Shown here piece after piece: positions 22,606 to 51,066 of a stretch of DNA of 60,413 nucleotides. The first letter of the stretch is position 1. Each line of letters begins with the position of its first letter. The notes beneath the pieces are model-generated. The model made no database searches and was not told the DNA's origin. It was given only the letters and a program-made list of their open reading frames with translations. The position numbers and the translations under genes were made by a program. The DNA is from Candidatus Tenderia sp. (lineage in GTDB: Bacteria; Pseudomonadota; Gammaproteobacteria; Tenderiales; Tenderiaceae). Location of the stretch: contig JANOSY010000008.1 in the NCBI GenBank assembly GCA_031416075.1, forward strand, positions 1 to 60,413. The letters run 5' to 3'.

Positions 22606-23645
<1,040 letters not shown>

Positions 23646-29969: not shown

Positions 29970-31319
29970 TTAAATCGTTTTGCCTTCTTTTCGCAACTCT
30001 TTAGCAATACCGTCAATCAGATCATTTTGACAAATTTTCTGCCGCTCTAACTTTAGGGCATTAATCGCACCATAACGAACCACATTGGCGATTGCACCAC
30101 CGGATAGCTCATGTTTATCCGCCAATACCTTAAGATCAACATCATCAGCCAACCGACTACTATCATTAAGCGCTCCACACCATAGTTTAAATCTCTGTTC
30201 CGCATCGGGCATAGAAAAATAGACTAACGATTGAAAACGACGAGCAAATGCCTCATCAATGTTCGCCTTTAAATTGGTAGCAAGAACTACAACGCCAGGA
30301 AAATCTTCAACTCTCTGCAACAGGTACGAGATCTCTTGATTAGCATAACGATCATTAGAGTTCGAGGTTTGAGTACGCTTTCCGAACAGTGCATCTGCCT
30401 CATCAAAAAACAGTATCCAGTTTCTGTTTTGTGCTTGGTCGAATACATTTGCAAGATTCTTTTCTGTTTCACCAATATATTTAGATACAACCATAGATAA
30501 ATCAATACGGTAAACATCGGCCCCCACCGCATTGCCTATCAAAGTGGCCGTTAATGTTTTTCCAGTCCCCGGAGGCCCATAAAAAAGTGCGCGATAACCT
30601 GGCTTTATATTTTTAGCCAACCCCCATACATTCATAATAGTATTTGAATGCTTAATCCATGCAGTTACATTCTCTATCTCGCTCAACACTGATGAGCTTA
30701 ATACCAGATCTTGCCAGGCCAATCGGGTACTAATTCGTTTAGCAGGGAACGTGGTGCTATAATCAGGCAACTGACGTATTCCTGTCGTACACAAATTAAG
30801 ATATTCATTAGACACCATCAAAGCACCACTAAAAAATGGTTGGCCATTGCCTTGATGCTCTACTTTGATGATGCCATTGGTAAGCAACACACTGTTTGAC
30901 TCAAACAGTGCCAAAATATCCAGTCGCCGTGCCAGATCACCGCCAGCCAGAATAAATGCTGCTGTTTCACATGTGGGCAAGAAGCCGCCATGAGTACTTC
31001 CTTTCCATCCACCAAATTCGGTATAACCACGATCAAGATTTTTGTTTCTAATAAAAAGAAGGTCAAGCACCTGGGGGCGAAGATGCGGTATCAACGCTAA
31101 AATGAGAATCACCCTTTCATCAAAAGTCAAAGAGAGTCTTTTGATTAAACTTGCATATTCAGACTTATCCTCATTTAAATCCGGTGGAATAAACATATCA
31201 ATATTACGAATATGAGGCGCCTGTTCAAAATAGAGATTAATGCGTTGTTCTATCACCTGCGCAAACCATGCAATCTCTTGTTCAAGCGTAACGGCGTTAA
31301 TATTAATTAATGACGTCAC
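29970..31319 (-). CDS. eCIS AAA+ ATPase (Afp15/Pvc15-like)
   Basis: GPPGTGKT, DLSMVVSKYIGETEKNL, LFFDEADALFGKRT, DRYANQEISYLLQR; at the distal end of the CIS operon. Confidence 0.92.
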   Translation of the reverse strand: MTSLININAVTLEQEIAWFAQVIEQRINLYFEQAPHIRNIDMFIPPDLNEDKSEYASLIKRLSLTFDERVILILALIPHLRPQVLDLLFIRNKNLDRGYTEFGGWKGSTHGGFLPTCETAAFILAGGDLARRLDILALFESNSVLLTNGIIKVEHQGNGQPFFSGALMVSNEYLNLCTTGIRQLPDYSTTFPAKRISTRLAWQDLVLSSSVLSEIENVTAWIKHSNTIMNVWGLAKNIKPGYRALFYGPPGTGKTLTATLIGNAVGADVYRIDLSMVVSKYIGETEKNLANVFDQAQNRNWILFFDEADALFGKRTQTSNSNDRYANQEISYLLQRVEDFPGVVVLATNLKANIDEAFARRFQSLVYFSMPDAEQRFKLWCGALNDSSRLADDVDLKVLADKHELSGGAIANVVRYGAINALKLERQKICQNDLIDGIAKELRKEGKTI

Positions 31320-31334
31320 AGTGAACCCACTATT

Positions 31335-34300
31335 TTAACGCCACTCAACATGAATAACCGTCTCCATCCAAGGCTGCTTAATGAGTGAAAAACTCCAAGG
31401 CAACTGGTCCAGTAACATATCGTAAGAACGAGCCTGAACCAGCAAATACCAGCCTTTTTCGTTGCGCTGTAAACGCCCTTCACGTTGTAAAAATGATTGT
31501 CGAAAACCCAATACAGAAGTATTTCCTATCGCTTTCCAGTTTTGAATCATCCCTTCCAGTAAACTATTAACAAGCGTACGTTCACTCTCACTAATGATCA
31601 CAGATCTAACAATAGGAATTCCTGTTTTTACACCGCATAAAATTTTATTTAAAACTAGCTGATACTCTGGTGCATCACAGTTCTCATCCACAAGATACTG
31701 CAATATATGTACCCCACGCTCAGCCGCTGCTGAATCTTTAAACTTAAAATTCTTCATCAAACCCAACATTTCAAACAGCCTGGATAAATATGGTGAAACC
31801 AATACCTGGCCGGCGTTTATAATATAAATATTTTCTATATTACGGTCATCCCGATCTACATCCACATGCGTTTTTTCATACTCCTCTACCAATGGGGAGG
31901 GTATTGTACGCACCATGTCCATTGAGTTATTCATCGCCTTGGCAATTTCTTGGTAAATTTTAGGGCCAGAACCACCAATATTAAGAATCAATACTTGCAA
32001 TATCTCTGAGGAAAAAGAAGCTCTATTACGCCTGCCAAGACTCTCCTCAAGACACAAGAAGTATTCTCGAATAAATCTATCTTTATTAAATAAAAACCCC
32101 TTTACAAAAATAAAATTAAAAATAAACCTCCACATCTCTTGACGTAACGTAACGGAAGAAACATCACTGCTAAGACCATAACAGGCTGTCGTCATCGCCT
32201 CAGCATAAGTCAAAATAGATTCACATGATATTTTCTGCAATATATACAATAACCTACACAATAGCCGATCGGGCAATAATATAGACAATGCCCACCCTGC
32301 ATTGGCATCAGGAAGAGCATCAATAAGATACCTTCTTAATTTAATCGAATCATTTTCAATCAACCATTCCGTCACTTCAATAAAACGGTTAGAATTCATT
32401 TTTTCTACACTATCTAGCTCAATTATAAAAATAAACTCATCTAATAGTGACTTTTTTTTATCAACATAACAATTTATAACACCTGAATCATAATCTTTTT
32501 CAAAAAACCCAATATCATTACCATAATTAACTACATTACTCTTAAAAGACTCATCAAAAATAATCGTCTCATCTCTTATAAGGAACTCAAAAATATCAAT
32601 GTAATATTTTCTTTTGTTTACTATTCTCCGTGAAAATTTATCAATTCTTTGTAGAAACCCATTTATATCAGTTGGGTTTATCGCTACAAAAACTGAATGG
32701 ACAAGTGATCTCAATCCTGAAATAGAAAATCTTGAGTTACGAATACTTTTTAACACTTCAAAAACTTGATTTCCAATCTGAATACCTGAAGTTTTATTCA
32801 ATATATATTCTTTCAATATACATAGATTATTCTCATAAATATCTTCTGATAATTTAATCATATCGACAACATTAATTTTCGACGCACCACCCGATTTAAT
32901 AAGAAATATAAATTCTGATATTAACAACTCTGTTTTATTGATCAGAGCATAATTTTCGTCTGCATCGGATGATATTTTATAAAAATCATTAACATTACCC
33001 CCATCTTCCTCCGACATTGATATTGAAAACACTAACTTCTCGAAATCAATTACCCTATCACTTATCAGATGCCAAAGAACCTGAGAGTAATAGTCTCTTT
33101 TATTCTTTGACCGTCGAGAAAAAGCATCCATGGCTTGTAAAAAATCCACTCCTGAAACATCCGAAACATTGGTTACAGAAAACACCGAGCGGATAAAAGT
33201 ATTCAATGCCAATACAGATAATTTTGATGTCACAGAACCAAAATCAACACCACCACTCTGCAAATCTCTATAAAATCTTAAAAATAACATTGGATGATTA
33301 TCAACCAATGTTTCAATCATTAATGAAAAACTATCATTAACTTCTTTACCATTGACGTATGAAATCTCACTTCGCAGGTCATTATCAATATCATATCCTA
33401 TAAAAAAATCGGGTTTATGGCTAAAGTGATTGGATAATAATCCATCATTATAGAAAAGTTCATTTTTTACATCTACGCTGTTTGATAGTTCAAACTCATT
33501 TTTTTCTAAATATCCCGCATATATATAATTATTCTCAGCATCAAGTGACTCACGAAGAAGATGTTTCGGTATATATCGTTTTATAAATTGATGGCTAACT
33601 TTTACATAATTGTCAACATTCGGGGGATAACCTCCACCATTTTCAACAGCATTAAAAATATGGGGTAACATTTTTATATTTTTACAGTACGAAAACCGTG
33701 ATGGCCTCATTACAGTATCATTAGACTCATTTAGCAATTCAATACAAACATTCAGAATACTACTTACGTCTTCTTTGTGATGACTATCACGGCTCATTTT
33801 TGAGATCACCACTTTTAGAAGGGCGCTATAACTGCGATCATCATAATCCGATAACATAGCCATAATGATATCGATACATATTTTCAATGTTGATGATATA
33901 TTTTTGTGAACAAATAGATACCTCAGCAGTAATTCGTTAAAAATATGCTGTCGTGTATTTACTGAAACATAGCCAACTCCTGATGACAAAGTATTAAAAT
34001 ATTTCTCAATAAATAAAAAATTATGCATGGATGAGGGAGCCACCAGATTTACTATATCCGTCAACATTATCCTATCAACCACTTTTGAAAAAATCTTTAT
34101 ATTCTTTACTAGAGATAGCTGATCTTTTAGAGTATTAACCAAAAACTCAGGATCATTAGACAGTATAAAACCCCAGTATTTTCTATCTTTATCAATCTCC
34201 CTCCCAGAAATAATAGATATCAACCGTATTTTTTTATTTTCTAATTCCATATCTTTAGTGTTAAAAAACGTTAGATAGCCTGAGCTATCAATATCATCTA

Positions 34301-35612
34301 TAATTTTTATCACGCTTTCTTTATCATACATTTCATACCCTGAGGAGATATCTGACAGTTCGTTTAAACTGTGTTTAATGATTTTAATGTTATTAATAAA
34401 ACTATCACCACCTCCACTACCCAACAATATGGCTAGATAATGGTGCTTATTAAAATCACCGCCACCATTTTTTGTAAGATAGGTAAGTGTTGAGACCCAA
34501 AACTGTGAGTCCGTCATCACTTGAGTTTTTTTTTGATTCAGAGAAAACAGAACATTCAATAGATTGATATAACCGACAGACTCAGGGGAAAGAATCTTAG
34601 AGATCTCTTTAAGCATAAAAAGTGGCAATACGCTGCACAAACGACTCCATCCTCTATTATCTAGACCATGTTCAAATATTAGCTGTTTCAGAGTTTCTGG
34701 AGTCCTTTTAATCAGTTCTGTCCACAAGGACGTAAACTCATCACAACCCCCATCTTTCATAGCCATGATTAATCGGTCACACATATCCTCAACAGAAGAT
34801 GGAAAAATATTATCAACATCATTTTTATATGTCGACCTATTAAGCGAATCTATCTCGGCATCGAGCATCTGTATAAATCGGCTCCATACTGGCAATGGTA
34901 GGTTGTTCTTTATCAATTGGTTAAACAGATAAGACCATATAACTTCTCTGAATTTTTTACCATCATTCGCTGAAATAACTCTAGAACTCACTTTTTCCTC
35001 TATCAGCTGCCGTAGTCGGACGGGGCGCCCATCAGTAGTAAAAAAAAGAGAAACGACCGTGTCAGACAGAAGAGCATCTGATAATTGTCGTATCAGTCTC
35101 AATAAGAGATGTTGGCAGTTGCTAGAGTGTTTTAGGTAATTGCGAAACAATAACGCATGTGAGAGAAGGACTTTTTTTAGAATATCTTCAATTGTTGCGG
35201 TGGATAAGCTATTGCTATTCCAAGGAAGAACACCATAGACAAGAAAATATTTTAGCTTCTCAAAATCAGCTTCTTGATTATCAACAGGACACCCCGTATC
35301 GCCACGCTCCCGACGGGGAGATACACTATATTCTTCCAATGCTTCTTTAAGCCTTTCTCGCAACCTAACCTCAAGCTCCTCATGTAGATGGGCATATGCA
35401 ATCACTCCAAGGTCAAGTTCCAGCCGCTCAATCGTACAGACGTCACCGGGGAAAAATTTTTTATTAGAAAAACTGGTAAACACCTCATCAACAATCGTTG
35501 ATAACCTATTTTTAAAAAGTATAGATAATTCACTGTTTTGATAAAGTGCGGCTTCCTCATCTGTAAAGTTAAGTTCCAGAGAAGTAGTTTCGATAATATG
35601 CCGATAGACCAC
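31335..35612 (-). CDS. eCIS tape-measure protein (Afp14-like)
   Basis: N-terminal IERLELDLG.I and FL..GVLPW; C-terminal NAG.VL..PYL..LF..LGL...LQYL...EYQL.LNKILCG...FLQREG.L...DMLLDQLPW. Confidence 0.85.
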   Translation of the reverse strand: MVYRHIIETTSLELNFTDEEAALYQNSELSILFKNRLSTIVDEVFTSFSNKKFFPGDVCTIERLELDLGVIAYAHLHEELEVRLRERLKEALEEYSVSPRRERGDTGCPVDNQEADFEKLKYFLVYGVLPWNSNSLSTATIEDILKKVLLSHALLFRNYLKHSSNCQHLLLRLIRQLSDALLSDTVVSLFFTTDGRPVRLRQLIEEKVSSRVISANDGKKFREVIWSYLFNQLIKNNLPLPVWSRFIQMLDAEIDSLNRSTYKNDVDNIFPSSVEDMCDRLIMAMKDGGCDEFTSLWTELIKRTPETLKQLIFEHGLDNRGWSRLCSVLPLFMLKEISKILSPESVGYINLLNVLFSLNQKKTQVMTDSQFWVSTLTYLTKNGGGDFNKHHYLAILLGSGGGDSFINNIKIIKHSLNELSDISSGYEMYDKESVIKIIDDIDSSGYLTFFNTKDMELENKKIRLISIISGREIDKDRKYWGFILSNDPEFLVNTLKDQLSLVKNIKIFSKVVDRIMLTDIVNLVAPSSMHNFLFIEKYFNTLSSGVGYVSVNTRQHIFNELLLRYLFVHKNISSTLKICIDIIMAMLSDYDDRSYSALLKVVISKMSRDSHHKEDVSSILNVCIELLNESNDTVMRPSRFSYCKNIKMLPHIFNAVENGGGYPPNVDNYVKVSHQFIKRYIPKHLLRESLDAENNYIYAGYLEKNEFELSNSVDVKNELFYNDGLLSNHFSHKPDFFIGYDIDNDLRSEISYVNGKEVNDSFSLMIETLVDNHPMLFLRFYRDLQSGGVDFGSVTSKLSVLALNTFIRSVFSVTNVSDVSGVDFLQAMDAFSRRSKNKRDYYSQVLWHLISDRVIDFEKLVFSISMSEEDGGNVNDFYKISSDADENYALINKTELLISEFIFLIKSGGASKINVVDMIKLSEDIYENNLCILKEYILNKTSGIQIGNQVFEVLKSIRNSRFSISGLRSLVHSVFVAINPTDINGFLQRIDKFSRRIVNKRKYYIDIFEFLIRDETIIFDESFKSNVVNYGNDIGFFEKDYDSGVINCYVDKKKSLLDEFIFIIELDSVEKMNSNRFIEVTEWLIENDSIKLRRYLIDALPDANAGWALSILLPDRLLCRLLYILQKISCESILTYAEAMTTACYGLSSDVSSVTLRQEMWRFIFNFIFVKGFLFNKDRFIREYFLCLEESLGRRNRASFSSEILQVLILNIGGSGPKIYQEIAKAMNNSMDMVRTIPSPLVEEYEKTHVDVDRDDRNIENIYIINAGQVLVSPYLSRLFEMLGLMKNFKFKDSAAAERGVHILQYLVDENCDAPEYQLVLNKILCGVKTGIPIVRSVIISESERTLVNSLLEGMIQNWKAIGNTSVLGFRQSFLQREGRLQRNEKGWYLLVQARSYDMLLDQLPWSFSLIKQPWMETVIHVEWR

Positions 35613-35618
35613 GCTTTT

Positions 35619-38066
35619 TTAAACTCGATGCTGAACAAGAAAACTGGTCAGGTCAATAGCCAACTCATCACACGCCTTTGGGTCGGCGGCTTGACGACGC
35701 TTTAAATAGCCCCACTTCTCGTAAATCCTTTCAAATTCACCCAACGCATCAAACTCTAGCCAGTAAAATTCAGGATAAACATGTGCAGGACAGCTCTCTC
35801 TAAGTGTCAATTCTGCAAGGTGTCGAAAATGTTTGTCTCGACTTCGAAGAGTCCATGCCGGTAATAAAATGGAAATCCTGAAATCATAAAATCCCTGCTC
35901 TTTCCACTCCAGAGTAGAGGCGCTCTGGGTGCTTGTGGGCATTAGTAAAACATGTTCCAGCAGGTAAATTCCTTCGCTTTCTATATTCAGCCGCAATATA
36001 AACTGCTGAAAATTATTTATTGAATGAATAGCACTCTCTGTATCGGTATATGTGCCCATGTACCATCCAGTGCTGCCATTATCAATCACAACAAATGCAT
36101 CAATCTTCTGACAATCATTCCGATTTATCAGTCGATATTGGTTGATGTTAACGCCAACATGTAACAATAGCTCACTAATCATCCCCGTTTGCAGAGGAAC
36201 AACATCACGCAACTGATTATACAACGCAGTCAAAGAGATATTCTTATCAATATTGACCACTGGCACTATTTTATACGGTACATGAAGGTTATTTATATTA
36301 ACCAAACGGTAACCATCATTGTCTTTATTTAATGCCAGGTAATAGTCGTGTGATACCAGTGCGATGTTTTGCGTGGAAAATGGTGCTGTCAACAATCTAG
36401 GGTGGTGTAGTTTAAAACCCAGCTGCCGACTCGCCCGTTGCTGAAGCCCTGAGACATTATTAACGTCATCCCACATGTCAAGCGTGTAATCGATTCCCGC
36501 ACCACGATCACGGCCAATTTTAATGATATGTCTAAGATAATCTATCTTGCTACTTACTATGTATTGACACAACTCATCATCACTGTAGTAGTGATTAAAA
36601 TGACGCAAAGCGTCCAATGTTAACCGCTCGCCATAAAGTGCCAAGAGGTAATCAAGAACACGGCTCTTTCGTTCAACTGAATTGTCGTAACATGAAATTA
36701 AATCGGCAATAATTTCTGATGGATTATCTGGATATATTTTTCCCACATCACGAATCACAGTTTCATTCAGCAACGTAGATGAGTACGAATGCTCTCCACT
36801 GTTTAGTGAGAATAGGTCACCGACGGAGCTAAAGTTAGCCATTGAATTGGCCATCAGCTGTTCAAATAGGAGTAGATAGCCTTTAAGTTGCAGAACCTTT
36901 GCTTTAACATCACTGCCTGCAGACTCCGGAACCCCATAACGGTTCACCCCATAAACATTAGGAAAATGATTCTGGATTGAGTAATAGTCCGCAATATTAC
37001 GAAAGGCTCCTTGTGGAGCTTTAACAACTTCACCACTGCTATATACTCTAGAGCGGGCAATTTTATGCTGATGTGTCAACTCCTGATAACGATCGCATAA
37101 ATCACTCAGAACAACCGATATGGACATGCGACTTTCGCTTAAACGAATACCCATTTCGGCATTTGTCGTTGGTAAATGCAGTCGAAGTGTCGCCTGAGGT
37201 ATCTGATGTGTTTCCGTTTTAGAATACAACTCACGATCATAATTCAGATATAAGCTTTTGATGTGATCAACACCCTCAATGCCATTAATAATTTCAAACA
37301 ATGAAGATACTAGTAACTCACCATGATCTCCATCCAGGTCTTGATCATCAATATAGCCGTGATGCGTCCATGGACCACAAAAAAGTTCGTCAAGTGTCAG
37401 CCCTTTCTGAAGCAGCAGGTCATAAGAGCCAGGGGTAATGCAACCACCAATATATTTTGAGCAACGATAGTATATTTCGGCCATTATCTCAGCCGCTGAG
37501 CGGCCACGCTTAACTTCGATTGCCGCATTCAAACTGCAATCAACTTCGCGCATAATCACAATTTCTTGTACATCTTCAGACAGATTTCGTTGTTGTAAAT
37601 AAGCACAACGAACTTTCTCAATCACCACTCCATACTGTTCCAGGGCCAACGGCTCGCACAATCTGACCGCTATCCGATATAACCCCCGCCCTGCGCTAGC
37701 GTGGCTAATCCAGACATTATCTATCTCCATCACCACATCAAGTATTACCTTGCGGTAATCTTGTTCCGTTGTCGCACGGCTGGGATAGATCTGCTCAGGG
37801 CTAAACAGCGCCAGTCTCTCGTAATCGATCCTACCATTTTCGTCGACCAGACAATCTTCAACATCAAAACCGGCACGATAGATCAGATCTGTAAGTGCAT
37901 AACAGAGCTGTTCCAGAATCGTAATTCCTGGATCATGGGGGTTATAGTCTGTCCAACGCAGGCCCGATAACCGTTGAATCGCATCAATGCCTTCACGACG
38001 CAAGCTCTCGTAGCTATTGTTATCATCTTTGCTATTGCGCCGCTTTATAGAGACAGCATCAGTCAT
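35619..38066 (-). CDS. eCIS baseplate wedge protein (Afp12-like)
   Basis: WTDYNPHDPGITILEQLCYALTDL.YR, YYSIQNHFP..YG, QLKGYLLLFEQL, LEHVLL...PAHV. Confidence 0.88.
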   Translation of the reverse strand: MTDAVSIKRRNSKDDNNSYESLRREGIDAIQRLSGLRWTDYNPHDPGITILEQLCYALTDLIYRAGFDVEDCLVDENGRIDYERLALFSPEQIYPSRATTEQDYRKVILDVVMEIDNVWISHASAGRGLYRIAVRLCEPLALEQYGVVIEKVRCAYLQQRNLSEDVQEIVIMREVDCSLNAAIEVKRGRSAAEIMAEIYYRCSKYIGGCITPGSYDLLLQKGLTLDELFCGPWTHHGYIDDQDLDGDHGELLVSSLFEIINGIEGVDHIKSLYLNYDRELYSKTETHQIPQATLRLHLPTTNAEMGIRLSESRMSISVVLSDLCDRYQELTHQHKIARSRVYSSGEVVKAPQGAFRNIADYYSIQNHFPNVYGVNRYGVPESAGSDVKAKVLQLKGYLLLFEQLMANSMANFSSVGDLFSLNSGEHSYSSTLLNETVIRDVGKIYPDNPSEIIADLISCYDNSVERKSRVLDYLLALYGERLTLDALRHFNHYYSDDELCQYIVSSKIDYLRHIIKIGRDRGAGIDYTLDMWDDVNNVSGLQQRASRQLGFKLHHPRLLTAPFSTQNIALVSHDYYLALNKDNDGYRLVNINNLHVPYKIVPVVNIDKNISLTALYNQLRDVVPLQTGMISELLLHVGVNINQYRLINRNDCQKIDAFVVIDNGSTGWYMGTYTDTESAIHSINNFQQFILRLNIESEGIYLLEHVLLMPTSTQSASTLEWKEQGFYDFRISILLPAWTLRSRDKHFRHLAELTLRESCPAHVYPEFYWLEFDALGEFERIYEKWGYLKRRQAADPKACDELAIDLTSFLVQHRV

Positions 38067-42977: not shown

Positions 42978-43007
42978 GCGACCCTACCTGGAACATTGGC
43001 TGTGCAA

Positions 43008-43433
43008 TTAGAGACGAACATTGGACCCTTCAAGCATATAGAATGGGTAGACAATATTACTGCGGGTATTGGTTGTCCTAATGGTGTAGTCCAGCTTAAC
43101 TTTGATCACACCATCATAGATCTCCTCATCATCCACCTCGACGCTGTTAACGCTAATCCGCGGTTCAAAAAAGAGCACAGCTCTTTCAACCACATCTTTA
43201 ATCTCTGTGACTGTGCTCTCGTTAATATGTTCGAATACCAATGACTTCAAACGGCAACCATAAGAGGGGTTCATCACCCGTTCACCAGGTGCGGTGGAAA
43301 ACAAAATATTCAAACTTTGACGAATATCTTCATCTTCAGTCACCATTTGCGCTCCTTTATTACGGTTGCTGAACTCAGGAGGAAATGACCAGCCTTTACC
43401 CAAAAACGCTTTATCAAGTGTCTCATTTACCAT
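43008..43433 (-). CDS. GPW/gp25-family baseplate protein (Afp9-like)
   Basis: FLGKGWSFPPEF, DIRQSL.IL..T.PGERVM.P.YG, FEPRI, TNTRSNIVYPFY. Confidence 0.93.
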   Translation of the reverse strand: MVNETLDKAFLGKGWSFPPEFSNRNKGAQMVTEDEDIRQSLNILFSTAPGERVMNPSYGCRLKSLVFEHINESTVTEIKDVVERAVLFFEPRISVNSVEVDDEEIYDGVIKVKLDYTIRTTNTRSNIVYPFYMLEGSNVRL

Positions 43434-43437
43434 TTTA

Positions 43438-43737
43438 TTACCCCCCTATTATCACTGTTGGGCAACCTAATACCACCGTACCACCATGTGCAGTAGTATC
43501 ACCCAATCTAGCCGCTGGCTTACCTCCTATCATCACTGTCATTGACCCTTTCACAATAGTGTCTGGTGGACCAACACATACACAGCTATCACCCACCACA
43601 GCAGCAGGCAACTTGCCAATCAGCACTGTTGGCACACCGGGTCCCACCACTGGCCCACCTACATGGGGGATAGGAGGGAGCCCCGGCGTCACCATCGGAC
43701 AGACATGCATATCAGTGATTCTGGAAGCAGGTGGCAT
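43438..43737 (-). CDS. PAAR spike-tip protein (Afp10-like)
   Basis: MPPASRITDMHVCP, GKLPAAVVGD, GGKPAARLGD..AHGG. Confidence 0.95.
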   Translation of the reverse strand: MPPASRITDMHVCPMVTPGLPPIPHVGGPVVGPGVPTVLIGKLPAAVVGDSCVCVGPPDTIVKGSMTVMIGGKPAARLGDTTAHGGTVVLGCPTVIIGG

Positions 43738-43771
43738 TTATCTATCCTTGCTTGTCATAACAACAATCGTA

Positions 43772-45562
43772 TCAATTAATCATTACCATCGCGCCCTTTA
43801 CCGTCGTCTGCCCCGAGGCAGAGAGCTCAGCAGAGGCGCTGCCCTTAGCAACAAAACCGATTTTTGCGGTGTGATTAACATTCATTCCCTCAACGGCCAC
43901 ATCTGCTTTTGAGGTCATACGAATTGTACCTACCGCATCAATCGTTACCTTGCCCTTGGCACTAATTTTAATATCCTTGGGACTATCAAGCACAATACCA
44001 TCCGGACCCAGCTCAACTTTATTATCATTCTGATCCTGCAACAGAATAGATTTATCCTTATCGCTGATAATAACTCTGTTATTTTCCGGCGTGGTCAATG
44101 TGATCACCTTATTTTCATCATCAAACTCCAGCTTTAAATTACTTTTAGTCACCAATGCTTTAATAAAATTATCCGCTGTTAATTCATATGGGGGCTTGCG
44201 GCTACTACTATAAAGACTACCCAGTATTACAGGACTAGAGGGATCGTTATTAAAATAGCCCAATACAACCTCATCACCAATCTCCGGCACAAAAAAAGCA
44301 CCTATACCAAGTGAACCATAAAAACTCAATAACCGCGCCCATACTCCTTCCGTTGTCGCCTGCATAACCGGCACGGTCACCTGTACTTTGTACTGCCCGT
44401 CAGGGTCTTCATCGAGTTTTTTAACCACCCCTATCTGTAAACCCTCAACACCTGGCAAAATACCAGCCGCCGCCGGAGCAACCACATCAGGCTGGTCAGT
44501 TAACCACTCTGGAGACATGCCAAATTCAGCCTCAGTAATCCAATTTCCATTGGCAATTTCATGCTTGACTGCCGTGGTAAAAACAGCCCCATTAAATCGC
44601 TTGCCAACCCCCTCCAGTTCAATCAAGGATCCTGGCAATGCCTTGGCACTGCCTTGAAATTTCATACGGCCACAAATACGCGACAGGCCTGCTTTAAGCT
44701 GCTGACCACCCGCCCACTGCTTAAGTGCCGCTTTATCCATCGGCGCAACGGTTTGAAGACGGAACGATTTCAGATCAATAACTCCGGCCAATGTGGCCGA
44801 GTCAAGATCTCCTTGTTCATTAAGCGTTGCTGGACCAACCGGCTCTTCAATCACCGCTTGAGTTTTTACATCCCATGAGACTCCCTTCACTTCAGCAAGC
44901 TGATGTCGGGAATCCAGATCGGCTTGAAACTCAATCAGGTCAGCGCCATAGGTAACTTTAAGCTCTGCGGCAATACTCATCTGTGGTGGCTTAACAGTCA
45001 CCTTACCTGCAGCCACACTTACCAACAGACCATTCACTTCAGCGCGCGACAACATGAAATCCCAATCGGTACAGTAATACTGCACCAGCTCTTTATACTC
45101 AATCGTGGTTGCCTCCACATCAGTGGTAAGACCGGCATAATTTGAGATCAGAGCAGTGATAACGTCACTATCTTTTGAATCAATATAATTGGCATTTTTG
45201 CGCCCCACCGTCATTGCTACCGCCTTATCACGGCACTCTATTACCAGACGAGACTCATTATCCCCCAATACTTTAATGCCATGTTTAATCACTACACCTT
45301 CAAAAATGGTATTTTCATCCGCATCGTAACCGGCGTTAATTTTGATAGCTGCACCTGGTTTAAACGTATCTTCATTGCTAAGCGGAAAATCCTGACCAGG
45401 CATATCACCATCCAAAACCACAATTTTAGCGGATGGAATTTTATTTAATATATTTTTAACTGAAACAGAGACAATCTGGATCGTCTCATCCAGTTGCTGT
45501 CCATCACTAAAAAGCGTTAACTTAATAGCACCACTGCTACCAACGCTGGGAGAGTCGGCCAT
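43772..45562 (-). CDS. vgrG: VgrG-like central spike (Afp8-like)
   Basis: QYYCTDWDFMLSRAE, GLQIGVV...DP, WARL...G.FFVPEIGDEV..G...DP..PVILGSLY, terminal KGAMVMIN. Confidence 0.93.
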   Translation of the reverse strand: MADSPSVGSSGAIKLTLFSDGQQLDETIQIVSVSVKNILNKIPSAKIVVLDGDMPGQDFPLSNEDTFKPGAAIKINAGYDADENTIFEGVVIKHGIKVLGDNESRLVIECRDKAVAMTVGRKNANYIDSKDSDVITALISNYAGLTTDVEATTIEYKELVQYYCTDWDFMLSRAEVNGLLVSVAAGKVTVKPPQMSIAAELKVTYGADLIEFQADLDSRHQLAEVKGVSWDVKTQAVIEEPVGPATLNEQGDLDSATLAGVIDLKSFRLQTVAPMDKAALKQWAGGQQLKAGLSRICGRMKFQGSAKALPGSLIELEGVGKRFNGAVFTTAVKHEIANGNWITEAEFGMSPEWLTDQPDVVAPAAAGILPGVEGLQIGVVKKLDEDPDGQYKVQVTVPVMQATTEGVWARLLSFYGSLGIGAFFVPEIGDEVVLGYFNNDPSSPVILGSLYSSSRKPPYELTADNFIKALVTKSNLKLEFDDENKVITLTTPENNRVIISDKDKSILLQDQNDNKVELGPDGIVLDSPKDIKISAKGKVTIDAVGTIRMTSKADVAVEGMNVNHTAKIGFVAKGSASAELSASGQTTVKGAMVMIN

Positions 45563-45565
45563 ACA

Positions 45566-46261
45566 TTACCTCAGCGGTGGAAAGTGGAGCTTAAGCCCCG
45601 GCGTAAGATTACGGAAATTAGTGAGACTATTCGCACGTGCCACTTCCAAATAATAAGAGCTGTCTTTATATATTCGATAACAGAGTAGTGGCAATGTATC
45701 CCCTGCCTTCACTTCAACGATATGACTAAGATCCGGTGATGAGCGATTGGCCCTAAGCGCCTCCTCCTCCTTAGTGATAAAGGCAACAAAAGAGAGCTTC
45801 AACTTTGCACGTAACGGTTCACCACTCGGTTTAAAAAGGGTGTATTCGATAGACATCGACTCAAGGCGACCAAAAAATATCAAACTACCCCATAAAAGAC
45901 GAACAGGGTCAGGCTGATGGTCAGAGCCATCATAGGTATAGATGATGTCGCTAAGCTGTTTAATCTGGGTTTTAACATCAGGGGAGCCTACACCAGGGAT
46001 CGGTAAATTCACCACCCCGGTACCATCAATCACAATGTCAAAGCTGATTTTCTCGGGATTAATTGCATCAAACTTCGAATCCGAACCCAACTGCCCCAAC
46101 GCTTTACTTTTACTGTAACTTACAGTGTGCTGATGGTTATAACTGGCAGGATTAAGCATCACATCAAACTTATCACTCTCTACCGTTAAACTGCCATCGC
46201 TCTCAATCGTGCATGGAGAGATAGAGAGTTTCTTTTTTAATCCAGTGCTTAATCCAGCCAT
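45566..46261 (-). CDS. eCIS tube initiator with C-terminal LysM (Afp7-like)
   Basis: MLNPASY, LLWGSL.F.G.L......YTLF...GEPLRA, SPDLSH..EVKAGDTLPLLC. Confidence 0.9.
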   Translation of the reverse strand: MAGLSTGLKKKLSISPCTIESDGSLTVESDKFDVMLNPASYNHQHTVSYSKSKALGQLGSDSKFDAINPEKISFDIVIDGTGVVNLPIPGVGSPDVKTQIKQLSDIIYTYDGSDHQPDPVRLLWGSLIFFGRLESMSIEYTLFKPSGEPLRAKLKLSFVAFITKEEEALRANRSSPDLSHIVEVKAGDTLPLLCYRIYKDSSYYLEVARANSLTNFRNLTPGLKLHFPPLR

Positions 46262-46432
46262 TTATCGCTCACGGGCCTCCGCCATCACATTGGCAATCAG
46301 ACGCTGACACTCTTCCAAAATACTCTGCTTTAACGCATCCAGATCAGCCACATCGAATGCTTGCCGCACCTGCGACTCTGAAACACTCTGAACCGTAGAT
46401 TTAATCACCAGCTGCCTAACCTCAATCGTCAT
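46262..46432 (-). CDS. eCIS spike plug (Afp6/DUF5908-like, 56 aa)
   Basis: Read manually: MTIEVRQLVIKSTV...LKQSILEECQRLIANVMAEARER*; canonical position between tube and initiator genes. Confidence 0.85.
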   Translation of the reverse strand: MTIEVRQLVIKSTVQSVSESQVRQAFDVADLDALKQSILEECQRLIANVMAEARER

Positions 46433-46437
46433 GATAG

Positions 46438-46911
46438 TTAAATAATCCTGTTTGAATAGTTATAACTGAGTTCAATTTTCTCAATAGCCACTTCGTTTTT
46501 AGTCGAATTAAAAGCGTCTACTTCCCAATTAACCGGATAGGCATTTGCAAACGACCAGGCACGAATCGGGATTCCATTTTCATTCAGAAGAAACACCAAA
46601 ATGGGCATCGGCACAATGGGGATAATAAATCCCGCTTCCATCACAGAACGACACCAGATTACCAATGGTGAACTCATTTTTGCGATACCACGTTTTAGCA
46701 CTAACTTGGGGTGTTTAATGCCTTTGGGCAACCGATGCACATAACGGTTTTCACCACCCTCGACCACATCCTCTGTCTCAACCTCTGAACCAATACCAGA
46801 AACCTCCTGAAATGAGGTATCTGTCATACCCGCTGTTGCAGAAAAGACCACTTTAAAATGAAAAGCGGCGGGTTGATAACCATCAGATTTTAAAATATTC
46901 AGATCAACCAT
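46438..46911 (-). CDS. Tail tube protein, gp19 family (Afp5-like)
   Basis: FQEVSGI, EGGENRYVHRLP, LVLKRG, WSFANAYPV.W, AIEKIELSY. Confidence 0.93.
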   Translation of the reverse strand: MVDLNILKSDGYQPAAFHFKVVFSATAGMTDTSFQEVSGIGSEVETEDVVEGGENRYVHRLPKGIKHPKLVLKRGIAKMSSPLVIWCRSVMEAGFIIPIVPMPILVFLLNENGIPIRAWSFANAYPVNWEVDAFNSTKNEVAIEKIELSYNYSNRII

Positions 46912-46928
46912 AAAATTTTCACCATAAC

Positions 46929-46971
46929 GCTATCCCTGAGCGAGGGGGATAGCACCACTCTCTCAGGGATA
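46929..46971 (-). other. Overlapping alternative RNA hairpins between the two tube genes
   Basis: GCTATCCC(46929)/GGGATAGC(46946) and TATCCCTGAG(46931)/CTCAGGGATA(46962) share one arm. Confidence 0.45.
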
Positions 46972-46982
46972 ATCAAACATTA

Positions 46983-47441
46983 TCAGGCATTATCGATAAT
47001 GATGCCCTCATGGGCGATTTCGATTGACTCGATCGCCACTTCATTTGAATCCGACTTCAAGTCAGTGCCTGTGATTTTTGTTGGCCACGCATTGGCCAAT
47101 GTCCAGACCATCGTGGGGGCACCCGCCTCATCCAGCAAACTAATAGTGACTGGCACACGCTTAACGGTATTCATCTTTACCTGACTAAACCAGGTCCAGA
47201 ACTTGTTATCCGATTTATAGACACCTTTTTTCATAGTGACATTGCTGGATTTTTTAATGCCTGGCATCTTGATCGTAGAGAACTCTGGACTATCCCCATG
47301 CCGGTATTCAATCGGCTGCGCCTCGATATCAAGACCCGATATCTCTTGGAAAGACATAACTTCTGAATCCCATTTCACCTGGAAATAGAATTTTGGCATG
47401 GGCCATACATTTGCAGATTGTGCTGAACCGTCATCGGCCAT
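46983..47441 (-). CDS. Major tail tube protein, gp19 family (Afp1-like)
   Basis: WPMPKFYFQV.W, FQEISGL, IEYRHG, KMPG, W.LANAWP.K, EVAIE..EIAHEG. Confidence 0.95.
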   Translation of the reverse strand: MADDGSAQSANVWPMPKFYFQVKWDSEVMSFQEISGLDIEAQPIEYRHGDSPEFSTIKMPGIKKSSNVTMKKGVYKSDNKFWTWFSQVKMNTVKRVPVTISLLDEAGAPTMVWTLANAWPTKITGTDLKSDSNEVAIESIEIAHEGIIIDNA

Positions 47442-47496
47442 AATAGATCTCCCTTATTTAAAAATAAACTTTCTGAAGCAAATGGTAAAACACTAT

Positions 47497-47515
47497 GGGG
47501 GCTACACTAGCCCCC
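47497..47515. terminator. Hairpin between sheath and tube genes
   Basis: GGGGGCTA-CAC-TAGCCCCC perfect stem. Confidence 0.5.
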
Positions 47516-47519
47516 TAAC

Positions 47520-49046
47520 TTATGATTTCTGCATCTGTTGCTGGAATGTGATCTCGATGAACTCAGCCGGACGAGAGATGGCCACCAACACAGTGATATT
47601 CAATATTCCTTCAAGAATGTCTTCTGAAGTCATCGTCTCGCCTAACCCCACATGCACACTAAAAGCATCATCCGGGCTTGCACCGGCTAAACCACCACGC
47701 TTCCAGATACCGGTAAGGAAATTGCGAATCATACTCTTCATGGTTACCCATGTATTGGCATTATTAGGCTCAAACACGTACGCCTTTGAAGCCAGTTTGA
47801 TGGACTCTTCCAACATGATCATAGTACGACGCACATTAATATAGCGCCAATCCAGACTATTACCATCCAGTGTTCGCGCGCCCCAAACCAGCGTCCCTTC
47901 ACCGATAAATGAACGAATAGCATTCACCGATTTACCTTGAGTACTGACATTCAGATTTTCTTGTTCTTCATGAGAGATGCTTACTGCCGGCGAGATAACA
48001 CCATTAAGGCTCACATTGGCCGGCGCTTTCCAAACACCTCGCGCATTATCAACCATGGTATAGACTCCTGCCATCGCTGCACTCGGTGGTAACAGGTTAA
48101 GCTGCGCTTTCATCTCAGTCACAACCGTTTTATACAGCGGACTCATAACAGAGAGAATTTTTTTAATCTCACTCGGTGCCAGGCTACCTGGCTTTATCGC
48201 ATCGCCATCCGCCGGCTTATCTGCTATTTCAGCAATAATCTCTTTAAGCTCACTCTTTTTTGCATCAGGCACCAGTGGATTGGTATCAACATCCGCCTCA
48301 AGCATCGTCTTAAACGCAGCAATATCTGTCATATTGTCGTAGGACAACTCTGAATCCTGCACTACCGAGGTATTGATCCAGGGATAGTACGCCGCACCAT
48401 AATCCAGATTATTGGTGCCCAGCTTACTTCTGAATACCTCAACACATCCATCTTTACCCTTGGACTCTTTAGAACCACCATGGATATCGAGCACCGCAAA
48501 GCGGTTTCTCATCGTGATGCCACAGTGGCTTAATGAGGCCTGCTGTACAGCAATGCAATCATCCAGTGCCAACTGAACCGCTTCAGGAATCACCACCATG
48601 GTAGGTTCCTGTTCTTTCTTAAGCGCCTCTATCCCGCCCATCAAACTTGGCGAGGCAATATCATCACCATAGTTTCCGACAGAGACGATATAGCAGGGGC
48701 CACCACCATTCTGGAAAAATGACAACATACTAAAATAAAGAATGTACTCTCCTCCATCACGTGCCAACAGATACTCTTTTTTCTCTAGCGTAAACGCTGA
48801 TTCATCAGCCGAGTCCGCACCCTTCTCTGCAATTGTAAAAAGCGCCTTAGGTGCACCACCAAAATAACTGCGAAACTTAGCCATAGAGGTGATCCGCCAT
48901 GGCTTGTTACGCAAGGTTTTGCCTTTGTTGTCAGCACGCTCTGTATAACCAACAAATGCTGGAACAGCTGTTGCCACCTCAACAACAGAGTTTGGAAAAG
49001 CGCTTTTCTCTACGATATAAACGCCTGGTGTTTTCATTGCTCCCAT
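47520..49046 (-). CDS. Contractile tail sheath protein (Afp2/3/4-like)
   Basis: KTPGVYIVE, TAVPAFVGYTE, AAYYPW, RGVWKAPAN, WGARTL, WRYINVRR, RPAEFI. Confidence 0.96.
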   Translation of the reverse strand: MGAMKTPGVYIVEKSAFPNSVVEVATAVPAFVGYTERADNKGKTLRNKPWRITSMAKFRSYFGGAPKALFTIAEKGADSADESAFTLEKKEYLLARDGGEYILYFSMLSFFQNGGGPCYIVSVGNYGDDIASPSLMGGIEALKKEQEPTMVVIPEAVQLALDDCIAVQQASLSHCGITMRNRFAVLDIHGGSKESKGKDGCVEVFRSKLGTNNLDYGAAYYPWINTSVVQDSELSYDNMTDIAAFKTMLEADVDTNPLVPDAKKSELKEIIAEIADKPADGDAIKPGSLAPSEIKKILSVMSPLYKTVVTEMKAQLNLLPPSAAMAGVYTMVDNARGVWKAPANVSLNGVISPAVSISHEEQENLNVSTQGKSVNAIRSFIGEGTLVWGARTLDGNSLDWRYINVRRTMIMLEESIKLASKAYVFEPNNANTWVTMKSMIRNFLTGIWKRGGLAGASPDDAFSVHVGLGETMTSEDILEGILNITVLVAISRPAEFIEITFQQQMQKS

Positions 49047-49058
49047 AATTTTTCCCTC

Positions 49059-50006
49059 TTAGCAGTTAACATAAATTTCCGACACTACCACATCATTTCC
49101 CTCTACAACATCTCTATTGCTACCATTCACAGAAGCCACCGGCAGCTGCTTAACCAGCATATCCCCACCGTTACGTCCCAACCGTTTTAACTGTAATCGC
49201 ACAGCTGGCCATTTTTGCATGGGCAGCGGTTTTTTTGATCTAAACGTGATGGCACGCTGCTTATCCGACAGCCACTCTTCACCCACATGCTCAAACTCAA
49301 CCTGCTTCTCAGGATCTGAAATACTAAGCTCCTCGGCACGGTAATCACCCAGAATATAATACTTCCAGAAACTGGTTTTTGTATCAAAATTCAGTAGGTA
49401 TTGCCTATATTGAGGTTGCATCTCCGCGTCAAATAGCGCACCACGTGTCACCGATGAAGAGAGCACCATATTGATTAAAGCAACAGGGCGTGACAACCGC
49501 TGCCGTTCATCAGAGAACCCAGACAAAGGCAACGTATCAAGGGTATAAAAGCGATAGTACTTTCTGGCCTGATTAAGTTTCTTTACGTCCTTGGGACCCT
49601 TAAAACCAGCAATTCGTCTAAAGTCTTGGCCCATTACAAACGGATCTTGATGCAGCCTCAGCATTCCATCTTGATGAGAGACCACCCGACTGTTATCAAA
49701 GTAGAGCATCGCATCTTTTCGATAGGTCGTCGGCTCTGTATAACTACCAAAGGCAGGATCATCGACATAGAGACAAAACCCAAGCAATAACAATTCCGGG
49801 CCGTTTTTTATCTGATCTTGAAGCAGTTCTAACTGCGCATCATTATAAAAAATAGCAACACCGCCTTCCACTTGGCGCACCATCAGATCAAAATTTCCCA
49901 TCAATCTGGCACTCTGAACGTTGGGTACCCACTTGAGCCCCGGCACTTTTCCATCCACAAAGTATGAGTGGTTAAGGAATACACTAAAAAGAGGGTAATA
50001 AGCCAT
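49059..50006 (-). CDS. eCIS-associated hypothetical protein (possible cap adaptor)
   Basis: Tightly coupled between the DUF4255 and sheath genes; Y.PLF.V...H.YF start and T.WKYY motif. Function inferred from position only. Confidence 0.6.
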   Translation of the reverse strand: MAYYPLFSVFLNHSYFVDGKVPGLKWVPNVQSARLMGNFDLMVRQVEGGVAIFYNDAQLELLQDQIKNGPELLLLGFCLYVDDPAFGSYTEPTTYRKDAMLYFDNSRVVSHQDGMLRLHQDPFVMGQDFRRIAGFKGPKDVKKLNQARKYYRFYTLDTLPLSGFSDERQRLSRPVALINMVLSSSVTRGALFDAEMQPQYRQYLLNFDTKTSFWKYYILGDYRAEELSISDPEKQVEFEHVGEEWLSDKQRAITFRSKKPLPMQKWPAVRLQLKRLGRNGGDMLVKQLPVASVNGSNRDVVEGNDVVVSEIYVNC

Positions 50007-50010
50007 TTTA

Positions 50011-50583
50011 TTATTTCAATAAAGTTTCCGGTTTCCGCAGTGTGGCCACCCGCTCTTTAACAGAACCCGAATCAAACGCCACCATCCGAACTTTATAAAG
50101 AATAGAGGGTAGGTATCTACCACTCATGATCCCCCACAGGTTACTCAACTCCTGAAAACTCATATTTTCAATATCCAATACCAATCTATCTATGCGCCTA
50201 TCCAGGTCTGGGGTATTCAAATGGTCAAAACTCGGCTGTCCTTGGAAATAGCTGATAGTGCTCGAAATAAACTTCAGCGCCTCAGGATAATTACTGCCAC
50301 TGAAACATGCCGATACCAATAGATAGATATTAAAATAGAGAGGGGGGGCATTAATAACAGCCCTGTTTTGCAAGGCGTTAGAGGTTGCTGACTGACGAAG
50401 GGGCGTGGTCTCTTTTTCAAGATTAACCAGCGAGATAACTACTTTATTATTAACATCGGCAACAACAGTGCCATCCTGCTCCAGAAGGTTGGATATCACC
50501 ACAATATCCTCAGGCAGATCAAACGACCTTTTCAGATTTTGATTCAGCTGACTGGCAATGTGGCTGATGGCTGAATCGATCAT
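50011..50583 (-). CDS. DUF4255/Afp16-like tube-sheath cap protein
   Basis: ISLVNLEKE, PLYFNIYLL, Y.EALK.IS..I.YFQ, LWG.MSG.YLPS..YKVR; first gene of the operon. Confidence 0.88.
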   Translation of the reverse strand: MIDSAISHIASQLNQNLKRSFDLPEDIVVISNLLEQDGTVVADVNNKVVISLVNLEKETTPLRQSATSNALQNRAVINAPPLYFNIYLLVSACFSGSNYPEALKFISSTISYFQGQPSFDHLNTPDLDRRIDRLVLDIENMSFQELSNLWGIMSGRYLPSILYKVRMVAFDSGSVKERVATLRKPETLLK

Positions 50584-50624
50584 AATCGTATCTGGCTCTC
50601 CCGGCCTAAAAAACTACAAAATTT

Positions 50625-50636
50625 ACCACTACCGCC
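50625..50636 (-). promoter_or_regulatory. ops-like (RfaH-loading) element in the eCIS leader
   Basis: Minus strand GGCGGTAGTGGT about 45 nt before the first start codon; Afp/PVC operons are known RfaH-family targets. Confidence 0.6.
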
Positions 50637-50793
50637 ATACCAACCGCTCTGAGAAAACGGCTGCACACCACAACGGGCTCAAGACACCTATACACCTTTA
50701 ACCAGCCCATGCCATAAAAAGCCTGCGGTTGCACCTGTGGCTTTTACCTATAAAAACAGGGATAGATTACCGATCAGAGATACATAGCGTGAG

Positions 50794-50823
50794 AGTATAG
50801 GACAGTGTGTTACAGATTGTAAA
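50794..50823 (-). promoter_or_regulatory. Possible sigma70/sigmaS promoter of the eCIS operon
   Basis: Minus strand TTTACA-N18-TATACT. Confidence 0.3.
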
Positions 50824-51010
50824 CTTAACAGGGAAAGAGACAAAAATTGTCACCTCACTCCATCATTGCACCAAAATCGTGCTGGCCAACCGGTTAAATC
50901 AACAACGATCCCAGCAGATGGCAACTTATACCTTAAACAGCCAAACACCGAGAACGGAGTATTGCCAAAAATACCAAGGGAGGTTATTCAAATACACTAA
51001 ACACAAACAG

Positions 51011-51043: not shown

Positions 51044-51066
51044 ATTGGGCACTTATTTGAGTACAG

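Follow-up and report, generated by a model that had tools for sequence, protein, structure and literature searches.

The subject of this report is a gene cluster on contig JANOSY010000008.1 of Candidatus Tenderia sp., analysed over its whole length of 60,413 nt (hereafter the window), which very probably encodes, in the structural sense, a complete contractile injection system (CIS) of the type recently described as SalCIS from Salmonella enterica subsp. salamae (Ejaz et al., Nat Commun 2026, PMC13266070), within clade Ib of the extracellular CIS (eCIS). Fifteen intact genes run along the minus strand from 50583 to 29970, separated by gaps of -8 to +78 nt, and an initial annotation made from the sequence alone had listed all of them correctly, in the same order and on the same strand, with a single sheath gene and the same tight packing. 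It had closed the system one gene too early, for a 758-aa protein encoded at 27685-29961, just outside the interval it gave, is a homologue of SalCis20, judged from alignment of its family, and SalCis20 is the inner-membrane protein that defines the class. Taken as a whole, the explanation that we favour, at a probability of roughly 0.6, is a membrane-docked CIS of SalCIS type whose DUF4157 cargo gene has been lost or relocated and beside which an ion-channel gene persists as a conserved neighbour. Two things are new here compared with the published class: the contig holds no SalCgo2 homologue, and a ligand-gated channel gene lies next to the system. All statements of absence below hold within this contig.

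As far as the accessible part of its description goes, SalCIS is a clade Ib machine with one sheath protein, a double cap and tails of ~600 nm; SalCis20 is an integral inner-membrane protein with a SleL-like periplasmic domain, and SalCis13 is a short protein, predicted to form a trimer, which is proposed to link the baseplate to SalCis20 (PMC13266070). Its structures (PDB 9R9H, 9R9I, 9R9N, 9RCE and 9R9A) served as our reference. The window's sheath aligns with that of SalCIS over its full length (residues 1-508 against 1-519 of 9R9H, E=3e-210), followed by the sheaths of AlgoCIS (2.1e-113) and of the Anabaena thylakoid-anchored CIS, tCIS (4.7e-105), and then by Afp/PVC sheaths at 1e-40 to 1e-56, the assignment being one of match scores against the PDB. 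The large baseplate cage protein Cis11 matches SalCis11 (9RCE_A, E=4.8e-164) from end to end in a single collinear stretch of ~1345 aa (21-1365 against 6-1309); AlgoCIS and tCIS match it mainly over the C-terminal ~450 aa, with AlgoCIS Cis11 broken into three aligned stretches of which the best covers 826-1279. The gene that had been entered as 'unknown' is present and can now be named cap adaptor Cis16b: as a single sequence it finds nothing in the PDB, and its seven-homologue profile (A5) finds SalCis16b (9R9N_C, E=9.7e-21) ahead of All3326 of tCIS (2.5e-12) and the AlgoCIS cap adaptor (4.8e-5). Together with Cis16a, which opens the operon just as it does in Salmonella (PMC13266070, available part), this gives the double cap characteristic of SalCIS. 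The two systems further share a plug, a VgrG and a PAAR protein free of extensions, a compact Cis12, a short Cis13-like gene and a Cis20 in which a signal sequence precedes a periplasmic domain and the C-terminal end forms three transmembrane (TM) helices.

The remaining structural genes are for the most part named by Pfam, which recognised the Pvc16_N cap, the sheath, two gp19 tubes, CIS_tube, the VgrG OB domain, PAAR, gp25, Baseplate_J (weakly, in Cis11), CIS_TMP and AAA, and returned no family for the 315-, 268- and 815-aa proteins, the second of which also lacks an NCBIfam family. Cis5 matches NCBIfam CIS5_fam under its cut-off. The tube initiator had been called a LysM protein; its CIS_tube assignment is firm, and the LysM part is weak, with the C-terminal 77 aa giving LysM2_NFP at E=0.054 and Phage_tail_X at E=0.12, both below cut-off. 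At 596 aa, VgrG has the median length of 41 complete homologues, and the PAAR protein (99 aa) that of 22, so neither carries a C-terminal effector extension, as had been proposed. Nor did any open reading frame (ORF) scanned across the window match a Pfam family for TssJ, TssL or TssM, in keeping with the class, which does without this membrane complex, and with the earlier view of the locus. The AAA+ ATPase is 38-69% identical to its homologues in 45 of 73 related loci and is placed between the tape measure and Cis20 in the window, in its relatives L003-L005 and in the majority of the 29 loci with both genes; unlike here, the Salmonella ATPase sits in a separate, oppositely oriented unit together with the effectors (PMC13266070, available part).

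These related loci were gathered by scanning genome contigs with a Cis12 alignment: of 685 pattern matches 629 encode a relative, and the best 80 of the 629 resolved into 73 loci. Homologues of Cis12 at E<=1e-10 number 988; the two nearest are 78% and 63% identical and all others at most 42%, which is also the best identity among the 73 loci. Searches with the window's proteins (tblastn) showed that this gene order is kept in related loci, proteobacterial ones preserving it most fully, and recovered Cis20-like genes in 30 of the 73. A quick, midpoint-rooted Cis12 tree of 49 rows (the window and the 48 loci whose Cis12 is one ORF of 700-1000 aa; 25 loci with truncated or split ORFs, L026 among them, were left out) places every Cis20-bearing locus that it contains in one clade of 27 rows (99% SH-aLRT), made up of Pseudomonadota and Nitrospirota with one Bacteroidales and one SAR324 row. 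Cis20 is absent from a second clade of 22 rows, comprising Bacteroidota, Acidobacteriota and one metagenome-assembled genome (MAG) titled Roseobacteraceae. The window itself falls in a clade of eight (95% support) with L001 and L003-L008, all MAGs of gammaproteobacterial type.

The Cis20 homologue is the gene on which the comparison with SalCIS turns. It starts 8 nt after the ATPase gene, and its protein comprises an N-terminal signal or TM segment, a peptidoglycan-binding-like segment, a linker of Ala-Pro and Glu-Pro (AP/EP) repeats that SalCis20 lacks, a periplasmic domain and, at the C-terminus, three TM helices, the hydrophobic segments (10-34, 667-690, 699-726 and 726-752) agreeing in layout with those of SalCis20. 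A profile of 16 family members (A3) aligns with SalCis20 (9R9A) at E=1.4e-86 in a single stretch, 9-758 against 23-860, and PG_binding_1 is found by Pfam in 6 of the 16. The protein is a putative membrane-anchored peptidoglycan hydrolase. A homologue search with the window sequence alone (P0001) is dominated by the AP repeat, and only 4 of 15 matches (P0005-P0008) were judged true homologues. The repeat itself, at residues ~234-286 (window 29100-29270), counts ~21 AP and 5 EP dipeptides between the peptidoglycan-binding-like N-terminus and the main periplasmic domain, has a weak TonB-like match in NCBIfam (E=8.6e-4) and could form a rigid spacer across the periplasm. Near residues 466-473 the periplasmic domain bears a conserved motif, DGVT(L/I)YFD (A3), which we take to resemble the active-site strand of glycoside hydrolase 18 without its acidic residues; the enzyme may, on this motif, be divergent or inactive. 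At the C-terminus (window 27685-27720), the protein ends in LP after a WRY-like motif, with P758 kept in at least 90% of the 16 homologues, and this tail, predicted to be cytoplasmic, may be where the protein touches Cis13 or the baseplate.

What such a gene set does in the cell is less certain than what it encodes. By analogy with the Salmonella system, a tail of probably several hundred nm would be assembled in the cytoplasm and its baseplate would attach to the inner membrane by way of Cis13 and Cis20; Cis20 would remodel the peptidoglycan locally, and contraction would then push tube and spike out across the envelope of the cell itself, in the manner of a type VI secretion system (T6SS) and without release by lysis. 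We regard a cell-retained mode of action for the window's CIS as close to an even bet. Precedents lie on both sides of the question within clade Ib. AlgoCIS of Algoriphagus machipongonensis (7ADZ, 7AEB) shares with the window homologous sheath, Cis11 (2.8e-91), Cis12 (3.6e-68) and cap-adaptor proteins and the architecture of plug and spike cage; unlike the window system it is released, with two DUF4157 proteins as cargo in its tube lumen (PMC8894135, available part), and no Cis20-like gene was detected in those Bacteroidota loci that reach past the ATPase. The tCIS of Anabaena (PMC8894136; 7B5H, 7B5I), again of clade Ib and homologous in sheath, cap adaptor, Cis11 and Cis12, is retained in the cell and anchored in the membrane through extensions of its baseplate proteins. 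The window differs from it in having no thylakoid context and in having Cis20 instead, and SalCis12, the closest match of the window's Cis12, is described without a large Cis12 extension (PMC13266070, available part). The same source counts the T6SS subtype iv of Amoebophilus asiaticus and the ixotrophy CIS of Aureispira as membrane-attached members of clade Ib with SalCis13-like proteins and a similar baseplate geometry, a likeness that we take from description only.

The obvious alternative is an ordinary released eCIS, in which lysis of the producer frees particles that act on other cells, and whose cargo, a DUF4157 protein or a toxin, is encoded, like its lysis genes, elsewhere in the genome. 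The example of AlgoCIS speaks for it; so does the fact that the SalCIS authors do not exclude release (PMC13266070, available part), as well as the small share of the genome that a single 60-kb contig brings into view and the finding, detailed below, that DUF4157 genes do not always adjoin such clusters. The locus itself points the other way. It has no gene for a long, receptor-binding tail fibre; the only fibre-like gene, of 268 aa, is present in 45 of the 73 related loci and in both main Cis12 clades, labelled in 45 ORFs at 29-67% identity and in 43 of these standing upstream of Cis12 as a gene of its own, 243-329 aa long. A membrane protein, Cis20, is encoded within the operon, and no Pfam family of holins or endolysins was found among the ORFs scanned over ~26 kb downstream and 10 kb upstream of the cluster. 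In the nearest characterised system, SalCIS, tails were seen in tomograms near the inner membrane, and no release of sheath or tube was detected (PMC13266070, available part). We accordingly hold a released eCIS to be unlikely, though a serious contender. The canonical released eCIS of clade Ia (Afp/PVC) is a poorer model still: with one sheath gene, a single fibre-like gene of 268 aa and no toxin or lysis gene, the window departs from it in each respect, as the initial annotation had recognised. That annotation had also suggested an undescribed variant, which no longer holds, since a cell-retained CIS of this gene content, associated with the inner membrane, was published in April 2026 (PMC13266070, available part) and the two sheaths match at the E-value given above.

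If the membrane-docked SalCIS type is accepted, its cargo becomes the principal puzzle. SalCIS has two effectors with the HExxH motif, SalCgo1 and SalCgo2, and homologues of SalCgo2 are reported in all operons of its cluster, the gene being termed the core effector of the class (PMC13266070, available part); more broadly, DUF4157 has been called a core eCIS marker (Geller et al., PMC8213781, available part). The window has neither protein. HExxH occurs in no real gene of its whole length, and the two stop-to-stop frames (>=50 codons) with the motif are both non-genic. Our DUF4157 profile, built from 16 ORFs of related loci, gave no real match when run over all six reading frames of the window, its best score (E=6) coming from a repeat artefact; as a positive control it recovered 20 ORFs in 18 loci, four of them outside the training set. 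The absence of toxin, DUF4157 and lysis genes that had been claimed at the outset thus stands for the contig, including the lack of a holin-endolysin cassette, save that the Cis20 homologue, a putative cell-wall enzyme, is the sole candidate of its kind. A His/Gln-rich match to the DUF4157 profile was rejected as AP-repeat DNA read in another frame. A deaminase gene at 21140-21622 was likewise set aside as a toxin: located on the other strand, within the high-GC flank, it is matched best in Pfam by the general cytidine/dCMP deaminase family.

In the relatives the picture is different. DUF4157 genes adjoin the Cis20 region in all three of the nearest comparable loci, in the order Cis20, DUF4157, channel in L003 and L004 and Cis20, channel, DUF4157 in L005. 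Their products are 50-56% identical to one another over ~250 aa and 43-67% identical, over 97-270 aa, to those of four further Cis20 loci. Among 54 accessory ORFs sent to Pfam out of 147 candidates (downstream of the ATPase or Cis20, or with HExxH), 18 carry PF13699, the 'eCIS core domain'; of the Cis20 loci with at least 1.5 kb visible past the last CIS gene, 8 of 14 have a DUF4157 gene. The position that this gene holds in L005, downstream of the channel, is occupied in the window by two unrelated exported proteins and transposase fragments. Most likely, then, the DUF4157 gene has been lost from the window or relocated, and if so the payload is encoded elsewhere or consists of no more than the spike and the ejected tape measure. 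Independently of the window, two relatives carry nuclease domains in this region, L012 with a WHH/colicin-DNase gene near its DUF4157 gene (21718-22362) and L042 with EndoU fused to DUF4157 (18302-19522), pointing to the usual diversity of effectors in the wider group.

A harsher reading of the same facts, not exclusive of the others, is that the locus is a cargo-less or decaying copy: a rearrangement of its 3' end associated with insertion sequences would have removed the DUF4157 gene, leaving a machine that fires empty, for puncture only, or that has fallen out of use. The presence of DUF4157 in 3/3 testable nearest loci fits this view, as do the two transposase fragments 300-1300 nt beyond the last gene of the low-GC island and the two genes, without homologue in any of the 73 loci, that stand where L005 has DUF4157. 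On the other side, the 15 structural genes, Cis20 and the channel gene are all intact, free of frameshifts and stops, which argues against long disuse, and there are near relatives, with Cis12 proteins 78% and 63% identical, whose own 3' ends are out of view. We consider such a copy improbable, and return to the membrane-docked system with its cargo gene lost or moved.

The second membrane gene downstream of the cluster shares the strand of Cis20, begins 93 nt beyond it and encodes a 716-aa protein of a kind that the Salmonella operon, as described, does not include. Its N-terminal part (residues 43-302) is assigned by Pfam to dCache_1 and MCP-like_PDC_1. The C-terminal 337 aa were compared as a profile of 16 sequences (A2: the window's module, 14 short stand-alone representatives from 150 listed, and the L005 ORF) with the PDB, where 69 sequences match at E<=1 and all 60 among the matches listed are chains of GLIC, the proton-gated channel of Gloeobacter; the alignment (E=3.8e-9, profile 124-326 against GLIC 104-290) runs from the extracellular domain through M3. 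The single sequence matches weakly (E=0.028), and Pfam Neur_chan finds no match in the protein even at E<=0.1. Hydrophobic segments at 592-647, 649-682 and 692-715 fit M1-M4, and the whole fits a topology of periplasmic Cache, two TM helices, periplasmic channel domain and M1-M4. By these tests the protein is a predicted homologue of the pentameric ligand-gated ion channels, abbreviated pLGICs. Fusions to Cache domains occur among prokaryotic members of this family, and DeCLIC is reportedly a pLGIC with an extra N-terminal periplasmic domain. The window's protein shares with GLIC the aligned channel module and belongs to a family where extra N-terminal domains are known; it differs in that its N-terminal module is a dCache_1 sensor joined through two additional TM helices.

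Within the window's subclade the arrangement recurs. A profile search found the channel in 4 of the 73 loci (L003, L004, L005 and L026), in the neighbourhood of Cis20. In the eight-row Cis12 clade a pLGIC lies on the same strand as Cis20 and within ~1.6 kb of it in all four testable members, directly after it in the window and L005 and with one DUF4157 gene between in L003 and L004, the other four contigs ending too early to show the position. The initial annotation's hunch that the downstream membrane genes matter was sound, one being the SalCis20 homologue and the other a sensor-channel fusion syntenic across the subclade, and the 'sensor-coupled' CIS that it imagined is, on this conserved neighbourhood, only a lead. 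A quick, midpoint-rooted tree, in which alternate entries among the 150 listed representatives join the four CIS-linked ones to make 79 channel modules, puts the window and L003 in one clade of eight (98%) and L004 with L005 as a 100% pair in the other half. Identities are 47% for window and L003, 69% for L004 and L005 and ~30% across the pairs, and a fragment of channel from the more distant, betaproteobacterial L026 belongs to the L004/L005 lineage (42-52%, against 27-37% to window and L003). The Cis12 tree, unlike the channel tree, groups L003 with L004 and L005, apart from the window. Two channel lineages at one neighbourhood fit repeated recruitment or replacement better than passive co-inheritance.

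Whether the channel has any part in the CIS is another matter, and that it is a mere neighbour from a large receptor family, with no CIS role, seems to us about as probable as not. The C-terminal module has 1570 representatives at E<=1e-3, most of them of ~700 aa and far more than could all be linked to CIS; the channel is found in only 4 of the 73 loci; the account of the Salmonella operon gives 18 ORFs with no channel among them (PMC13266070, available part); and 93 nt lie between it and Cis20 in the window. Against mere proximity stand the presence of the channel in every testable locus of the subclade, its order shuffled relative to DUF4157, the two separate lineages, split on well-supported branches, whose history departs from that of Cis12, and the occurrence in L026. 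In the opposite extreme, the pLGIC would be a dedicated chemical input of the CIS in a gammaproteobacterial subclade, dCache-fused in the window and L003: a small molecule sensed in the periplasm would open the channel, and ion flux or direct contact with Cis20 would control assembly or firing of a tail docked on the inner membrane, perhaps without DUF4157 cargo; that the dCache-pLGIC may feed a chemical signal into the system is our inference, and the full proposal is a long shot. Our search of the literature turned up no paper linking CIS with ligand-gated ion channels or Cache domains.

Several points weigh against the favoured explanation and temper its probability. The extended domain IV of SalCis11 (residues 419-549) is a presumed feature of the window's Cis11, implied by the overall collinear match. 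The similarity of the window's Cis20 to SalCis20 is low when the sequence stands alone (E=4.8e-19, in three collinear pieces), and Pfam finds no hydrolase family in it. The Cis13-like name is a candidate label. Inner-membrane docking is itself only proposed for SalCIS, whose authors neither resolve the anchoring nor exclude regulated release (PMC13266070, available part). A SalCgo2 (HExxH) homologue, reported for every operon of the class, is missing from the 60-kb contig. Neither companion gene is universal within the visible reach of the 14 comparable Cis20 loci, DUF4157 being seen in eight and a pLGIC in four. Both trees are quick searches with midpoint roots, and promoter and terminator scans do not settle the limits of the operon.

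What is at stake depends on these readings. The definition of the SalCIS class dates from 2026 and was drawn from a single Salmonella system; here the class turns up among environmental Pseudomonadota and Nitrospirota. A member occurring in nature that lacks the class's 'core effector' makes what such machines deliver directly testable. The recurrence of a channel beside Cis20 supplies a concrete candidate trigger, and the channel-as-input reading, if true, would describe the first chemically gated contractile injection system. Should the channel prove to play no part and the cargo be encoded in another place, the locus would simply add a further member to a class already known. The genes and neighbouring features are collected in Table 1.

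Table 1. Features of the CIS cluster and its surroundings in the window, listed from the cap gene downstream and ending with the flanks.
Feature	Position	Strand	Basis
Cap protein Cis16a, 190 aa	50011..50583	-	Pfam Pvc16_N E=1.9e-32
Cap adaptor Cis16b, 315 aa	49059..50006	-	profile of 7 homologues (A5) against PDB
Single sheath Cis2, 508 aa	47520..49046	-	PDB 9R9H, SalCIS sheath, E=3e-210
Inner tube Cis1, 152 aa	46983..47441	-	Pfam Phage_T4_gp19 E=1.1e-48
Second tube-like protein Cis5, 157 aa	46438..46911	-	Pfam Phage_T4_gp19 E=1.6e-37
Plug Cis6, 56 aa	46262..46432	-	Pfam DUF5908 E=6.3e-10
Tube initiator Cis7, 231 aa	45566..46261	-	Pfam CIS_tube E=1.2e-43
Spike VgrG Cis8, 596 aa	43772..45562	-	Pfam Phage_base_V; NCBIfam vgr_GE E=4.3e-55
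PAAR tip Cis10, 99 aa	43438..43737	-	Pfam PAAR_motif E=6.3e-25
gp25-like wedge Cis9, 141 aa	43008..43433	-	Pfam GPW_gp25 E=3.6e-27
Baseplate cage protein Cis11, 1371 aa	38862..42977	-	PDB 9RCE_A E=4.8e-164
Short fibre-like protein (Cis13-like), 268 aa	38063..38869	-	between Cis11 and Cis12; conserved in related loci
Baseplate protein Cis12, 815 aa	35619..38066	-	PDB 9RCE_B SalCis12 E=2.1e-75; Alg12 3.6e-68
Tape measure Cis14, 1425 aa	31335..35612	-	Pfam CIS_TMP, split by insert
AAA+ ATPase Cis15, 449 aa	29970..31319	-	Pfam AAA E=2.9e-29
Cis20 homologue, 758 aa	27685..29961	-	family profile against 9R9A SalCis20
dCache_1 sensor fused to pLGIC, 716 aa, candidate accessory gene	25441..27591	-	Pfam and profile against GLIC
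Two exported beta-sandwich proteins, membership doubtful	23908..25211	-	Pfam N_BRCA1_IG E=5.9e-16, BsuPI E=2.7e-12
Two transposase fragments, downstream edge of low-GC island	22619..23604	both	Pfam
Upstream intergenic region, 483 nt, likely promoter region	50584..51066	-	sigma-70-like site

The tape measure protein is split by an insert of 826 aa (residues 255-1080, window 32373-34850, minus strand) without a Pfam family: positions 1-238 of the CIS_TMP profile match residues 4-254 and positions 139-463 match residues 1081-1424. The insert has the lowest GC of the window, 0.313, and is enriched in Asn, Ile, Ser, Lys and Asp. An internal duplication, suspected by eye, was not borne out, self-BLASTP finding none at E<=1e-3. 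At 1425 aa the protein is close to the median of its homologues (1402 aa; range 529-2517, n=45), a length that fits the 600-nm tails of SalCIS (PMC13266070, available part). The inner tube protein Cis1 belongs to a 90% cluster of 172 members, among them a Chromatiales MAG and a hydrothermal-vent metagenome.

Downstream of the channel, the two overlapping beta-sandwich genes share the strand and the low GC of the CIS genes and, as said, have no counterpart in the related loci. One encodes 249 aa with two NBR1-like immunoglobulin (Ig) domains and a signal peptide, the other a BsuPI-like protein of 185 aa (a protease-inhibitor family) with a lipoprotein-like LIMGC box, and both N-termini resemble signal peptides. 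The transposase remnants beyond them are a C-terminal fragment of DDE_Tnp_1 on the minus strand and an IS3-like rve/rve_3 fragment on the plus strand; GC climbs there from ~0.39 to ~0.5, and the low-GC island ends ~6 kb downstream of the cluster. In the related loci, other genes recur past the CIS: a class I S-adenosylmethionine (SAM) methyltransferase follows Cis20 in L013 (21211-21870), L016 (17843-18448), L030 (21601-22248) and L034 (20893-21552), and in two Bacteroidota loci without Cis20, L046 (18094-19487) and L048 (18028-19544), a Bestrophin-like membrane protein and a methyltransferase of the same kind follow the ATPase, making another recurrent accessory pair.

Ahead of the cap gene, the intergenic region contains one sigma-70-like site, TTTACA-18-TATACT at 50823-50794, the promoter scan as a whole counting six sites against 4.1 +/- 2.0 in shuffles, not above expectation; Rfam finds no family in the region, and Rfam and tRNA scans found nothing. 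Terminator-like sites number 8 at 49900-53100 against 2.8 +/- 1.5 in shuffles, the other promoter and terminator counts matching their shuffles, and the stretches that separate the ATPase, Cis20 and channel genes are free of terminator-like sites. Further upstream, at 51067-56165, genes on the same strand as the CIS and of intermediate GC (0.47) encode two methyl-accepting chemotaxis proteins, a rhodanese and a phosphonate-type periplasmic binding protein. A DUF455 protein at 56460-57263 is at least 90% identical to one on another contig, and if that contig is the one carrying the 78% Cis12 relative, the two loci share this flank. At the opposite end of the window, 1-7715, lies a type I restriction-modification system comprising HsdS, HsdM and an HsdR that the end of the contig truncates.

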